Of a DNA stretch of 51,831 nt, positions 35,320-43,321 are shown piece by piece. This stretch comes from Patescibacteria group bacterium (GTDB lineage Bacteria > Patescibacteriota > Minisyncoccia > Phycocordibacterales > 21-14-all-36-13), in assembly GCA_018899555.1 (NCBI GenBank), contig JAHIHZ010000011.1, positions 1 through 51,831 on the forward strand. Direction: 5' to 3'. Position 1 is the stretch's first letter. Every line of letters starts with the position of its first letter. Both the position numbers and the translations under genes were made by a program. The notes beneath the pieces are model-generated. The model had not been told where the DNA came from. It saw only the letters and a program-made list of their open reading frames with translations, and did no database searches.

Positions 35320-35508
35320 ATGACTACTAAAAAAACTGACAAAATTATTACTCTTAAAGAAGCTTGTGAGATTTTGAGTTGCCACCCTAACACTCTACGA
35401 AAATGGGATAACAAAGGATTTCTAAAAGCCATTCGTTTTGGTACAAGACGAGATAGACGGTATCACAGAAGTGATATAGAAAAATTAATCTCTAAAATGA
35501 AGAAATAA
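35320..35508 (+). CDS. MerR/excisionase-type helix-turn-helix DNA-binding protein (62 aa)
   Basis: ITLKEACEILSCHPNTLRKWDNKGFLKAIRFGTRRDRRY resembles excisionase-family HTH proteins. Confidence 0.7.
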   Translation: MTTKKTDKIITLKEACEILSCHPNTLRKWDNKGFLKAIRFGTRRDRRYHRSDIEKLISKMKK

Positions 35509-35510
35509 TT

Positions 35511-36101
35511 ATGAAAAAACAATTAAAAAATAAAGTAATCGCAATTTTTGAAGGCAATCAAATTCGCCGACATTGGGACGAAGAAAAAGAGTTGTGGTAT
35601 TTTTCTATTGCTGATGTGATTGGCGCGCTAAACACAAGCGAGGATCCAAGAAATTATTGGAAAGTGTTAAAAAACCGCCTAAAAAAGGAAGGAAGTGAGG
35701 TGGTTACAAAATGTAACCAACTGAAAATGAAGGCGTCTGACGGCAAGTTTTATCTAACCGACTCAGCTGACACAGAGACAATTTTTAGAATAATCCAATC
35801 AATCCCCTCGCCAAAAGCCGAGCCGTTTAAGCTTTGGTTAGCGCGCATAGGTTATGAAAGAATTGAAGAAACCGCAGACCCTGAAAAAGCCATTCAAAGA
35901 GCGCTGGCGACTTATCTTAAAAAAGGTTATTCCAAAAACTGGGTGGATTTACGATTGAAAAGTATTGAAATTAGAAAGGATTTAACTAATGAGTGGAATG
36001 AGCGAGGAGTGAAAACAAACGATGAGTTTGCTATTTTGACTGACGACATTTCTTTTGCTTGGGCAGGATTAAAGACAAAAGCGAAAGTAAAGACGCGATA
36101 A
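35511..36101 (+). CDS. Bro-N / DinD-like domain protein, probably C-terminally truncated
   Basis: FEGNQIRRHWDEEKELWYFSIADVIGAL... and SPKAEPFKLWLARIGYERIEE...KGYSKNWVDLRLKSIEIRKDLTNEW match the Bro-N/DNA-damage-inducible protein D pattern. The ORF ends earlier than typical family members. Confidence 0.6.
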   Translation: MKKQLKNKVIAIFEGNQIRRHWDEEKELWYFSIADVIGALNTSEDPRNYWKVLKNRLKKEGSEVVTKCNQLKMKASDGKFYLTDSADTETIFRIIQSIPSPKAEPFKLWLARIGYERIEETADPEKAIQRALATYLKKGYSKNWVDLRLKSIEIRKDLTNEWNERGVKTNDEFAILTDDISFAWAGLKTKAKVKTR

Positions 36102-36210
36102 AAATTTTGTTGAACATAATTAAAGAATCCGATCCAAAACATTATGAAATTCTGACAAAAAACACAGAATAAGAATTTTGGATTGAAGGATTGATTTAGT
36201 CATAATAAAT

Positions 36211-36496
36211 GAAAGTTGTGAGGCAAGACCTCACAACTTTCCAAATGAAAAAACTATTCCCTTATTTAGCTAAATAAGGGAATAGTTTTTACAAGCGATA
36301 TTTTGAGATCTGAGATTAATCGAGAGGAAGATTTTCAGCGGTTTCATCGCTGAAAATTAACCACTGAAAAGAAAAACCGCTGAAAATTACTGAAATTATG
36401 AATATCTTTCTTTCAAAAAAAGTTCGGATTTCACCTAAAAAAATTCTCGCAAAAATGAATGAAAGAATAACTTAAAAAATCAGTATTGAAAAAGGC
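36211..36496 (+). repeat. island repeat A, copy 1 (copy 2 at 41165-41420)
   Basis: Order of elements: GAAAGTTGTGAGGCAAGACCTCACAACTTTC hairpin, a 19-bp-stem palindrome AAAACTATTCCCTTATTTAGCTAAATAAGGGAATAGTTTT, CAGCGG hairpins, the nuclease-type 5' UTR, then the 25-codon ORF. Confidence 0.9.
36398..36475 (+). CDS. 25-codon ORF MNIFLSKKVRISPKKILAKMNERIT (paralog at 41322-41399); coding status unproven
   Basis: Shares its first ~27 nt with the thermonuclease genes. The frame stays open in both copies despite several substitutions. Confidence 0.3.
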   Translation: MNIFLSKKVRISPKKILAKMNERIT

Positions 36497-36531
36497 ATTT
36501 GTAGGGCAGTTGTAGGTTAGTTGACAATTAC

Positions 36532-36561
36532 TTGACAATTGAATATGGATTAGTTTACAAT
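36532..36561 (+). promoter_or_regulatory. sigma70-like promoter TTGACA-N18-TACAAT
   Basis: TTGACA at 36532-36537 and TACAAT at 36556-36561. The first ATG at 36572 leaves a leader of only a few nt. Confidence 0.45.
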
Positions 36562-36571
36562 GTAGTTGTTT

Positions 36572-41089: not shown

Positions 41090-41164
41090 TTTATGCTCTA
41101 CGACGAATTTAATTCATATAAAAACTTTACCGGAATAAAATTTATGAGAAAACAATCAAAAAGT

Positions 41165-41420
41165 GAAAGTTGTGAGGCAAGACCTCACAACTTTCCAAAT
41201 GAAAAAACTATTCCCTTATTTAGCTAAATAAGGGAATAGTTTTTATAAGCGATATTTTAAGATATGAGATTAATCGAGAGGAGAATTTCCAGCGGTTCAA
41301 CCGCTGGAAACTACTGAAATTATGGATAAATTTATTTCAAAAAAAGTTCGGATTTCATCTAAAAAAATTCTCGCAAAGATGAATGAAAGAATAACTTAAA
41401 AAATCAGTATTAAAAAAGGC
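41165..41420 (+). repeat. island repeat A, copy 2
   Basis: Collinear with 36211-36496, minus about 30 nt. Confidence 0.9.
41322..41399 (+). CDS. 25-codon ORF MDKFISKKVRISSKKILAKMNERIT (paralog of 36398-36475); coding status unproven
   Basis: Same length and frame as copy 1, with 5 amino-acid differences. Confidence 0.3.
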   Translation: MDKFISKKVRISSKKILAKMNERIT

Positions 41421-41488
41421 TTTTAATGAGGAGTTGTAGGTCAATATCGTTAAAACCAATGTTTTTTCTTACATTTTAACGGTATTGA

Positions 41489-41516
41489 TTGACATTATCG
41501 TTAAGTTGAGTATAAT
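41489..41516 (+). promoter_or_regulatory. consensus sigma70 promoter TTGACA-N16-TATAAT implying a leaderless fic mRNA
   Basis: TTGACA at 41489-41494 and TATAAT at 41511-41516. The ATG at 41523 is 7 nt after the -10 box. Confidence 0.5.
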
Positions 41517-41522
41517 AGAGAT

Positions 41523-42410
41523 ATGGCGAACACATTAAAAGTATACAAAAAAATACAAAGTTTACGGGAAAGATACTACAAGGCCATCGTGGGTAAAGAG
41601 TCTCTTTTGAAAATACTTGCAGAAGCAGAAGTTTCCGATCAGGTTTATAACTCAAACGCTATTGAAAACAGCACTCTTACACTTGAAGAAACTGATAAAA
41701 TTCTTCTTCAAATAGAGCTTGATAGATATATAACAGAGCGAGAAATTTTTGAAGCCAAAAATCTTGCTCGAGTTGTGTTATATATAGAAACCAAATCAAA
41801 AGAAAGTGAATTAAATTTTGATATTATTTTGTCTTTACATAAAATGCTTATTTCTAATATTCGTGATGATATAGCTGGTAGATTTAGAAAAGAAGATGAA
41901 TGGGTACGAGTTGGTGATTATGTTGCACCAAATTCATTAGAAGTTACCGATCGTTTACAAAAAGTTCTGACAGAATATAATTCAAATGGTTCAGAGTCTA
42001 TAATAAAAAGAATTGCTAAATTTCATTTAGGTTTTGAGTATATACACCCATTTTGTGACGGGAATGGTCGTATTGGACGCGTCTTGAACAATTATCTTTT
42101 AATGCGGGGCGGATATGTGTCCATAAACATTAAATTTATTGATAGAGCTTTGTATTATGATGCCTTTAGAGAATTTCAGACGAAGGGTAGTACAAAAATT
42201 ATGGAAACTATTGTTGCAAAAGCACTTACAAACAGTTATCACAGACACCTTGCGTATTTAGAAAATAAAACAGTAATGAATTTATCTGATTATGCCAAAG
42301 AGCATAGTTTTTCTCATGCAAATTTAATAAATAAAGCAAAGCGTCAAACCATTGAAGCTTTTTTGGAAAAAGGTGTGTGGAAAATTGGCGTTGATAGTGA
42401 GAAAAAATAA
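41523..42410 (+). CDS. fic: Fic-domain protein (class II, N-terminal inhibitory helix)
   Basis: Active-site motif HPFCDGNGRIGR. The N-terminal SNAIEN fits the (S/T)xxxE(G/N) autoinhibition motif. Confidence 0.88.
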   Translation: MANTLKVYKKIQSLRERYYKAIVGKESLLKILAEAEVSDQVYNSNAIENSTLTLEETDKILLQIELDRYITEREIFEAKNLARVVLYIETKSKESELNFDIILSLHKMLISNIRDDIAGRFRKEDEWVRVGDYVAPNSLEVTDRLQKVLTEYNSNGSESIIKRIAKFHLGFEYIHPFCDGNGRIGRVLNNYLLMRGGYVSINIKFIDRALYYDAFREFQTKGSTKIMETIVAKALTNSYHRHLAYLENKTVMNLSDYAKEHSFSHANLINKAKRQTIEAFLEKGVWKIGVDSEKK

Positions 42411-42493
42411 TATGAATAAATCGGAAACACGAGCAGGATATAATTTCCAGCGGTTGAACCGCTGAAAATCAACCACTGAAAATTACTGAAATT

Positions 42494-43321
42494 ATGAATA
42501 TCTTTCTTCCAAAAAAAGTTTTAGTTGCAGGATTTGGAATTTTGATATTGTTTATTGGGGTTCTGATTGGAATGCAATTTAGAAACACTGCTGGGCAATC
42601 GCCAGTATTGTCAAAGTCAAAAATTACCAACGAAAAAACAAATGAGGCAAATGTTCAAAATGTATTAGAACCTCAAAATAAATTACAAACTGAAACATAC
42701 AAAGTCACCCGTGTTGTTGACGGTGATACCATTGATATAGAAATAGGCGATAAGATAGAGCGAGTACGATATATCGGCATTGATACTCCAGAAACAGTTG
42801 ACCCAAGAAAGCCAGTGCAGTGTTTTGGCATTGAAGCTTCAAAGAAAAATAAGGAATTAGTTGAAGGAAAAATGGTGCGATTGGAAAAAGACATCACTGA
42901 CCGTGATAAATATAACCGACTTTTGAGATATGTTTTTGTTGATGATGTTTTTATAAATCTTGAATTGGTTAAACAAGGTTTTGCTTATTCGTATTCATAT
43001 CCGCCAGATATAAAACATCAAGATGAATTTCTCAAAGCTCAACAAGAGGCCGAAAAGACAAAGCAAGGGTTATGGAGCGCCTGTCCAACAGAACAAGAAC
43101 AAACTATTTCAACACCAACACCAACTCCAACTATAGAAAATAATAATGGGGAATGTTTAATTAAGGGTAATATAAGTTCCACAGGTGAAAAGATTTATCA
43201 TATGATAGGATGTGGTTCATATAGAAAAACTCAAATTGACGAGAGCCGAGGAGAAAAATGGTTCTGTACTGAAGCGGAAGCTCAATCTGCCGGTTGGCGC
43301 AAGGCGTTGAATTGCAAATGA
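42494..43321 (+). CDS. membrane-anchored secreted thermonuclease (SNase fold) with Cys-containing C-terminal extension
   Basis: N-terminal TM VLVAGFGILILFIGVLIG. SNase core VTRVVDGDTI...RYIGIDTPE...NRLLRYV...NLELVKQGFA. The C-terminal 80 aa contain 5 Cys. Confidence 0.85.
   Translation: MNIFLPKKVLVAGFGILILFIGVLIGMQFRNTAGQSPVLSKSKITNEKTNEANVQNVLEPQNKLQTETYKVTRVVDGDTIDIEIGDKIERVRYIGIDTPETVDPRKPVQCFGIEASKKNKELVEGKMVRLEKDITDRDKYNRLLRYVFVDDVFINLELVKQGFAYSYSYPPDIKHQDEFLKAQQEAEKTKQGLWSACPTEQEQTISTPTPTPTIENNNGECLIKGNISSTGEKIYHMIGCGSYRKTQIDESRGEKWFCTEAEAQSAGWRKALNCK

Follow-up and report, generated by a model that had tools for sequence, protein, structure and literature searches.

How did two unrelated genes come to lie between the same pair of repeats, each directly upstream of an SNase-type nuclease sequence, in a genome of the Patescibacteria (candidate phyla radiation, CPR)? 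The window analysed here is a stretch of 51,831 nucleotides (nt), positions 1 to 51,831 of contig JAHIHZ010000011.1 in assembly GCA_018899555.1. Between its tRNA-Ser gene and the 3' end of its 23S rRNA gene is an island of 9 kb in which every gene is on the forward strand, the surroundings being otherwise on the reverse strand. The island contains two units, each comprising a repeat A, a variable 'cargo' gene, a repeat B and nuclease sequence. A preliminary description proposed that these were cassettes of a new layout, generated by the insertion of cargo into the start of the nuclease gene. The explanation preferred here, which is on balance the probable one, is that the repeated cassettes are the scars of at least two serial recombination events in which only one side of the incoming DNA was homologous to the chromosome, natural transformation being a plausible setting.

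Alignment confirmed that both repeats are present in both units, and that they far exceed chance expectation. Repeat A (36204-36517 and 41158-41441) extends slightly beyond the limits first given for it; the copies are approximately 90% identical, with a single 30-nt indel. Repeat B together with the 5' part of the nuclease gene (37621-38228 and 42404-43020) is 90-95% identical. On the forward strand, alignments and folds divide the first copy of repeat A into two strong hairpins (36211-36241 and 36246-36293, the second terminator-like), a palindrome of the repetitive extragenic palindromic (REP) type at 36336-36352, the 5' untranslated region (UTR) of the nuclease gene with the first 27 nt of its coding sequence (36398-36424), a filler of 11 nt (36425-36435), the 23-nt tail of a RadC-like gene (36436-36458) and the upstream flank of a Fic gene, terminating in GTTGTAGGT at 36509-36517. 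The second copy, also on the forward strand, has the same order and the same chimeric junction: hairpins at 41165-41195 and 41200-41244, the palindrome at 41290-41306, a nuclease-start stump reading ATGGATAAATTTATTTCAAAAAAAGTT at 41322-41348, the filler at 41349-41359 and the RadC tail at 41360-41382. Both strong hairpins are 100% identical between the copies.

A 25-codon open reading frame (ORF; 36398-36475, forward strand) spans the junction, and is composed of the 27 nt of nuclease start, the 11-nt filler and the last 23 nt of the RadC-like gene, read out of frame. In the sister haplotype L087 the same DNA, read in another frame, closes a RadC N-terminal ORF of 94 aa that is unbroken. By this comparison the 25-codon ORF is the scar of a chimeric junction and not a gene, and the identity of the junction in the two copies of repeat A implies that it arose once.

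The variable segments had been described as bounded at either end by an identical duplicated string, taken for a target duplication. Three exact copies of ATGAATATCTTTCTT(T/C)CAAAAAAAGTT do exist, but the fourth, to the left of the unit 2 cargo, is the divergent stump given above. Moreover, the duplicated segment is not 27 nt but approximately 60-90 nt, reaching from the CAGCGG palindrome to nuclease codon 9. The insert itself is a random-looking fragment with pieces of other genes at its ends, namely the RadC-like tail on the left and, on the right, the opening of the gene found after Fic in other genomes. A cargo element that duplicated its target site is thus not supported. In unit 1 the right-hand piece (MNESETRAGY; 37629-37661, forward strand) represents the first ten or so codons of that gene and overlaps the cargo stop codon (ATAATATG), and in unit 2 its equivalent (MNKSETRAGY; 42412-42444, forward strand) is the native downstream flank of Fic. 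As a description of structure, the initial account stands: foreign DNA has been joined within the 5' end of the nuclease gene, so that a stump remains and a nuclease gene follows it downstream, and the same flanks surround two different cargo genes.

Each unit had also been credited with a membrane-anchored SNase nuclease, which holds for unit 2 but not for unit 1. Alignment and translation show that the match of copy 1 to the nuclease covers codons 1-173 (37711-38228, forward strand), contains an in-frame change of CGA to TGA at 38086-38088 and ends at 38228, where it continues in frame into a type IIG restriction-methylase gene of which only the C-terminal third is left (38229-39465, forward strand; Eco57I and TaqI_C domains in Pfam). 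PADLOC places this fragment at positions 836-1246 of the 1247 in its REase_MTase_IIG model. The joint at 38228/38229 is an illegitimate junction between two truncated genes, and copy 1 is a dead stump which, being truncated, does not qualify as a member of the SNase family. It is approximately 98% identical to the intact nuclease of the sister haplotypes L087 and L088, and seems to be the resident allele. Copy 2 (42494-43321, forward strand) is intact, matching positions 1-106 of the 107 in the Pfam SNase model (E = 1.2e-26). It consists of an N-terminal hydrophobic, transmembrane-like segment, the SNase domain and a C-terminal sunset domain (NCBIfam; NucI-like); the hydrophobic N-terminus and an RYIGIDTPE motif were read from the sequence. 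Its protein is 89% identical to that of the sister haplotype, and is likely to be an imported, diverged allele. A terminator-like hairpin lies downstream (43320-43353). Nucleases with this combination of anchor, SNase and sunset domain are common in Patescibacteria at about 60-70% identity.

The starts of the two copies seem to have a different history from the remainder of the gene. Comparison of 37711-37770 and 42494-42553 with L087:2028-2090 shows that the first 130 nt or so of the two copies, covering UTR and start, are 99% identical to one another, with L087 differing at five sites in codons 2-6. By contrast, the stump in the second repeat A has the sister-type start, MDKFISKKV. Together these patterns provide evidence of gene conversion among the nuclease copies.

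The sister haplotypes indicate the direction of change. L087 has the order Xis, RadC-N (94 aa), HTH-ATPase, nuclease and rRNA, and L088 has repeat A1 followed by HTH-ATPase and nuclease; both are single units with an intact nuclease. Their nuclease tracks the copy 1 alleles as far as 38228, after which the next 300 nt or so are only 74-88% identical to copy 2, with identity rising thereafter to 99-100%. On this alignment the single-unit forms cannot be products of deletion between copies 1 and 2 of the two-unit form, which is instead the derived state. Differences between copy 2 and L087 are scattered up to 43294 and the last is at 43326, followed by complete identity over 43327-43560; the crossover on the right therefore lies either where the nuclease gene ends at its 3' side or further on. 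The window has lost the resident nuclease past codon 173, and is likely to have gained a diverged segment comprising the methylase fragment, an AAA_14 gene, the second repeat A, Fic and the nuclease allele.

Within this segment, the AAA_14/DUF4143 ATPase region (39465-41134, forward strand) contains a gene at 39650-41089 and its promoter at 39586-39615. On either side of gene and promoter is a 46-nt direct repeat (39465-39510 and 41089-41134; 91% identical), which begins on the last base of the stop codon of the methylase fragment and on that of AAA_14. It may represent a third scar of the stump type. Exact look-up of the AAA_14 protein returned contigs of this genome only, and hence no donor lineage.

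The domains originally assigned to the genes of the island (HTH-GHKL-DUF4325, class II Fic, SNase, excisionase HTH and Bro-N) were all recovered by domain searches, and the consensus promoter said to precede each variable gene is likewise real, with 11 of 12 matches at 36532-36561 and 12 of 12 at 41489-41516. The cargo 1 cassette (36510-37627, forward strand) was delimited by Pfam and by DNA homology to L138 and L144. Its ORF (36572-37627) encodes a winged HTH, which is a weak match in Pfam, a GHKL ATPase (HATPase_c_2, E = 1.4e-6) and a STAS-like DUF4325 (E = 1.4e-8), and starts with an ATG 10 nt past the -10 box. The promoter contains the direct repeat TTGACAATT twice within 36521-36561, an arrangement kept in three contexts. 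No PADLOC model exists for this HTH-ATPase, and a search against the sequences of solved structures gave only weak histidine-kinase matches.

The cargo 2 cassette (41434-42410, forward strand) has its ORF at 41523-42410 (Pfam Fic, E = 2.1e-21), with the ATG 6 nt past the -10 box. Class II Fic proteins were recognised by the motif HxFx(D/E)GNGRxxR in combination with an N-terminal inhibitory motif, (S/T)xxxE(G/N); here residue 44 begins the sequence SNAIEN and, in the same chain, HPFCDGNGRIGR is found at residue 175, so that this is a class II Fic, a FICD-like AMP transferase, and its best relatives of solved structure are FICD (E = 3e-19). A 13-nt inverted repeat, AATATCGTTAAAA / TTTTAACGGTATT (41443-41455 and 41474-41486), with a third half-site at 41495-41505, overlies the -35 box and spacer of the promoter and is conserved in six genomes. 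The repeats in the two cargo promoters look like putative self-regulation sites, and the proximity of both start codons to the -10 box suggests that the mRNAs are probably leaderless.

Homologues of the two genes are numerous. Those of Fic at 73-93% identity fall into more than 100 protein clusters, and those of HTH-GHKL-DUF4325, at 71-90% identity, are equally widespread. Close homologues of Fic (89-93% identical) were examined in five contexts, one beside YchF and glycosyltransferase genes, one following a Macro gene, one within an rve/restriction-modification region and two more; none adjoins an SNase gene. The same is true of close homologues of HTH-GHKL-DUF4325 (81-83% identical) in two contexts, one after a full RadC gene and the other before LexA and a type IIG gene. 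In the five unrelated contexts, DNA homology to Fic begins at 41434-41440 in four, with L131 as the exception at 41395, and stops at 42386-42442; for the HTH-ATPase in the unrelated contexts L138 and L144, it covers exactly 36510-37627. No terminal inverted repeats or target duplications were seen at the ends of the Fic cassette, where conservation runs from the operator and promoter to the stop codon. Both units have a left flank, GTTGTAGGT, and a right flank, ATGAAYnAAnnnGAAACA with the MNxSETRAGY remnant, that elsewhere belong natively to Fic; it therefore seems that the HTH-ATPase cassette took the place of Fic between flanks that were Fic's own. The two could then be regarded as alternative alleles that can be swapped through ordinary homologous recombination in these flanks. 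Both cargoes appear to be independent single genes with their own promoters, probably leaderless and self-regulated. Viral contigs held no relatives of Fic and only distant relatives of the HTH-ATPase (34-37% identical), and so gave no sign of carriage by phage.

On the anatomy of the units, their chimeric junctions, the direction of change and the absence of an association between cargo and nuclease is built the interpretation that the events were homology-facilitated illegitimate recombination (HFIR) in cells undergoing natural transformation. DNA arriving from a related lineage would, each time, pair homologously on its right side, anchored in the 3' end of the nuclease gene or in the conserved flank of terminator, REP palindrome and 23S rRNA gene, and its left side would be joined illegitimately inside the resident nuclease gene. 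The product would be a 5' stump of the resident nuclease, preceded by its REP palindrome and 5' UTR, with a fresh nuclease copy downstream. What would be the second event joined a 518-nt stump to the last third of the type IIG methylase gene, importing AAA_14, a second copy of the first scar, Fic and the diverged nuclease. The same reasoning applies to the 27-nt stump in repeat A and makes a similar earlier event probable, in which this stump would have been joined to the tail of the RadC-like gene.

HFIR, in which one end is homologous and the other illegitimate, is documented in naturally competent bacteria (PMC3240628), and examples from Acinetobacter, Streptococcus pneumoniae and Pseudomonas stutzeri are summarised in the same source. 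Both kinds of joint are found here, the illegitimate ones linking codon 173 to the methylase gene and codon 9 to the RadC tail, and the homologous one lying where identity begins at 43327. As in the documented cases, the illegitimate joints unite unrelated, truncated sequences, foreign genes have been placed beside a conserved anchor and the resident sequence between the joints has been lost. The present case differs in being read from sequence alone, in an uncultivated lineage for which no donor was found, and in having apparently occurred twice at one anchor with the scars stacked.

Several points weigh against this explanation. DNA uptake is presumed rather than demonstrated in this lineage: natural competence has been shown in Saccharibacteria (PMC10633639), the only group concerned, although the type IV pilus genes of the window include PilM, PilO and a PilB-like ATPase. 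No genome with a type IIG - AAA_14 - repeat A - Fic - nuclease-2 allele arrangement was found, so that import is deduced from the patterns of divergence; nor were the intact donor sequences, the full type IIG gene and the donor RadC, that a comparison of microhomology would need. The sharing of the first 130 nt or so by the two nuclease copies, to the exclusion of L087, requires later gene conversion, and this mosaicism blurs the history of the locus. The 46-nt repeat around AAA_14 is accommodated only loosely. Finally, both left edges of the duplicated UTR segment fall at a REP palindrome, which could point to a mechanism linked to these elements.

A simpler history would be that the whole unit, from repeat A through cargo and repeat B to nuclease, was duplicated in tandem in place, one cargo being replaced later and gene conversion acting in patches. 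The two units are indeed collinear, with an identical chimeric junction in repeat A, and patches of 99-100% identity (hairpins, UTR and roughly the first 130 nt) show that conversion between the copies has taken place. Such a duplication is harder to reconcile with the centre of nuclease copy 2, which is only 70-93% identical to both copy 1 and the sister haplotype; the flank downstream of copy 2, by contrast, matches the sister haplotype completely, a pattern typical of allele import. Furthermore, the joint between the units fuses truncated and unrelated genes, and the methylase fragment and AAA_14 have no counterpart in unit 1. Duplication in place is consequently regarded as rather unlikely.

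The palindromes raise another possibility. Five copies of the CAGCGGTTNAACCGCTG-type palindrome are present in the window, against a chance expectation of 0.04, and all are intergenic and confined to 7 kb of the island: in addition to those in the two copies of repeat A, there is one in the nuclease 5' UTR of unit 1 (37665-37681), one in that of unit 2 (42448-42464) and a fifth (43459-43475) in the gap that separates nuclease copy 2 from the 3' end of the 23S rRNA gene. With its flanking T/A runs the sequence folds into a stable hairpin (-7.6 to -9.9 kcal/mol; z-scores of -5 to -7). It was also found in 41 metagenome stretches, in which 28 of 52 distinct copies (54%) are intergenic, and did not occur in the other loci retrieved, which total 1.25 Mb and are mainly from CPR. 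In eight metagenome loci (L095, L096, L101, L111, L112, L119, L120 and L127; for example L096:957-1676) it accompanies a 221-aa Y1_Tnp/RAYT-like gene, lying no more than 100 nt from both ends of the gene in seven of the eight. This gene scores 31.9 bits against Pfam Y1_Tnp (cutoff 23), and only 25-29 bits against NCBIfam REP_Tyr_transpos (cutoff 80). It holds one internal palindrome, encoding the peptide SGSTAGN, and in L096 and L101 it directly follows ychF.

The pairing of REP elements with REP-associated tyrosine transposases (RAYT), or REPtron, is a known arrangement (PMC2817692, PMC3116915, PMC3733652). The palindrome resembles these elements in being a G+C-rich hairpin present in several mostly extragenic copies, and in bracketing a Y1 (IS200-like) gene in metagenomes. 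It departs from them in that the GTAG or CGTC tetranucleotide conserved at one end of REP palindromes (PMC3733652) is found neither in the window nor in the copies flanking the RAYT-like gene, all five window copies are within the island, tblastn detected no RAYT gene in the window, and the score against the RAYT model is below the cutoff set by NCBI. A search of the literature retrieved no paper connecting RAYTs with Patescibacteria. An Rfam scan of the window and the palindrome-bearing loci identified rRNA, tRNA and introns only, so that the palindrome does not belong to a known RNA family. A possible role as operator for a regulator of the island was provisionally set aside upon the association with a transposase; in repeat B the palindrome sits 3 nt past a TATAAT box. 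Overall, the CAGCGG palindromes seem to be REP elements of a RAYT-like transposase family and not cassette sites.

It is conceivable that a Y1 transposase, or breakage at the hairpins, cut and rejoined the chromosome at these palindromes, and so both produced the junctions at which a palindrome abuts the remnant of the gene after Fic or a terminator and duplicated the segment containing REP, UTR and nuclease start. The homology of both the A-type and the B-type repeats starts within a few nt of the left edge of a palindrome, the downstream flank of Fic directly adjoins one, and the ancestral nuclease lay between two of them (at 1982 and 2978 in L087); the family relationship with a RAYT-like transposase is also in keeping with this idea. 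However, the coincidence of edges is based on just two independent junctions, the right-hand breakpoints at nuclease codons 9 and 173 do not fall at REPs, and no transposase is available within the window. RAYTs are not known as movers of cargo genes. A rearrangement of this kind is viewed as distinctly improbable.

The interpretation originally advanced, that a dedicated system inserts cargo into the nuclease start with duplication of the target, and that a secreted nuclease acts with exchangeable regulators or effectors, fares much worse and is considered very unlikely. That two cargo genes lie in identical flanks upstream of a nuclease speaks for it, but a recombinase is lacking from the island, the 25-codon ORF is the scar of a chimeric junction, the ends of the insert are fragments of other genes and one of the two nucleases is dead. 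A survey of 54 nuclease loci, taken from other Patescibacteria and from a small number of further phyla, in which DUF4325 was sought within 8 kb, gave none with a DUF4325 gene. Two of the 54 contained a Fic gene; these are 24-27% identical, lie several genes away or downstream, and in neither case directly precede the nuclease. What lies upstream of nuclease homologues varies greatly and includes genes of defence-type families (DUF2726, OLD/TOPRIM, GmrSD, MTES_1575 and NYN), which would suit an exchangeable partner; in total the two genes upstream represent 98 Pfam families across the 54 loci, ranging from enolase and PheT to DUF2726, OLD, GmrSD and NYN. When each was searched against itself, none of 51 other loci had a duplicated 5' coding fragment of the nuclease. 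Repeats A and B had no blastn matches in 80 nuclease loci from other genomes, and a metagenome scan for the UTR-plus-start pattern likewise returned none. With seven independent contexts of close cargo homologues lacking SNase, functional pairing of the nuclease with these genes is not upheld, and neither is a new cassette layout, which recurs nowhere else in the loci compared. The two conditions under which the original description was itself to be abandoned, an architecture without recurrence and genes without co-occurrence in other genomes, thus essentially hold.

Short repeated modules do exist near nuclease genes in other lineages. In L001 (Tagabacteria) a promoter-like module of 45 nt, ending in ATG and 93-100% identical between copies, occurs three times (7310-7355, 7968-8012 and 8830-8874), in front of three consecutive genes: an NYN-domain gene, the nuclease and a 91-aa ORF. 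L004, L009, L012 and L014 likewise have repeated intergenic modules, of shorter length, close to the nuclease.

The stacking of single genes in one orientation with short, hairpin-forming repeats between them is also reminiscent of integron cassettes. An integron was rejected, as neither an IntI integrase nor attI or attC sites are present, the cargo genes have their own near-consensus promoters, and the repeats consist of gene fragments and REP elements.

The least credible alternative, that two strain alleles or loci sharing the nuclease repeat were wrongly concatenated, takes its cue from repeats of 300-600 nt at 90-95% identity that broke other assemblies exactly here (L082, L084, L085 and L086), and is dismissed because the full two-unit structure recurs in a second assembly, ERZ27247124, with 99.995% identity along 19.3 kb, a contig of a third (L084, from GCA_018899895.1) crosses the nuclease::methylase junction at 100% identity, that junction offers no shared repeat for a mis-join, and the stump bears a nonsense mutation as a real pseudogene would.

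The wider setting is that of a decaying island. As first reported, and now borne out by ARAGORN, Pfam and the list of ORFs, it begins at a tRNA-Ser gene (GCT anticodon; 34365-34454, forward strand) and carries an excisionase-type HTH and a truncated Bro-N gene without an integrase. Beyond the tRNA, a repeat search identified a degenerate att-like region (34620-35187, forward strand) with three partial copies of the tRNA-Ser 3' end (34620-34654, 34814-34848 and 35168-35187), and a direct repeat of 120 nt is located nearby (34501-34620 and 35031-35150). Short inverted GGATTCGAA motifs lie between the degenerate tRNA-end copies (34455-35190). The region 34455-35190 looks like the residue of multiple integrations at the tRNA gene. 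It is followed by the excisionase/MerR-type HTH_17 gene (35320-35508, forward strand; Pfam E = 2.9e-11) and by the Bro-N gene (35511-36101, forward strand; Pfam Bro-N), which lacks its C-terminal third and matches positions 4-188 only of the 286 in PADLOC model PDC-S13 (E = 4e-91).

In its position beside a tRNA, its partial 3'-end copies, its excisionase-type HTH and its switch of strand relative to the neighbouring genes, the locus resembles tRNA-linked genomic and defence islands. Its content is also of the defence type: Bro-N/PDC-S13, the type IIG restriction-modification fragment, AAA_14-DUF4143/PDC-S01 and the SoFic-like Fic. Unlike a mobile island, however, it has no integrase among its annotated ORFs, no tRNA-end repeat is present at its far boundary at 43.5 kb, the partial copies being confined to 34.6-35.2 kb, and several of its genes are truncated. 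It is thus a decaying, integrase-less mosaic between tRNA-Ser and the rRNA operon, and not a mobile unit.

The 16S and 23S rRNA genes of the window are rich in introns according to the Rfam scan. Three group I introns were identified, one in the 16S match and two in the 23S region, with several LAGLIDADG genes alongside, and a group II intron domain (7165-7254) lies just beyond the 16S match; the coordinates of the introns in the rRNA region are 7165-7254, 8340-8618, 46966-47196 and 47704-47976. The window also has an insertion in the 23S rRNA gene at approximately 45351-46209, in which a LAGLIDADG_2 homing-endonuclease gene is encoded (45382-46125). The sister haplotypes L087 and L107 lack this insertion, so that it is a polymorphism for presence or absence of an intron.

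One contribution of these results is to dispose of a false lead, since the locus does not hold a new nuclease-effector cassette system. What novelty is left is modest, and consists of footprints of one-sided homology in an uncultivated CPR lineage, a REP/RAYT-like family and two conserved single-gene units. The REP-type palindrome and its RAYT-like transposase have been identified in groundwater metagenome contigs. Fic and HTH-GHKL-DUF4325 emerge as two very conserved, self-contained single genes that have spread in this group. An unlikely but more general possibility is that the flank formed by the nuclease and the rRNA genes acts as a recurrent homologous anchor, at which competent Patescibacteria capture and stack self-promoted single genes with an integron-like outcome and no recombinase; cleavage at the REP palindromes on the left edges of the duplicated segment might assist such capture. 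If this were true, the high conservation of the cargo genes across many CPR lineages (72-93% protein identity, against about 60-70% for the nuclease) would reflect frequent horizontal spread. More immediately, single-unit and two-unit forms assembled from neighbouring ENA analysis accessions provide a concrete, datable change of gene content in ultra-small, uncultivated bacteria.

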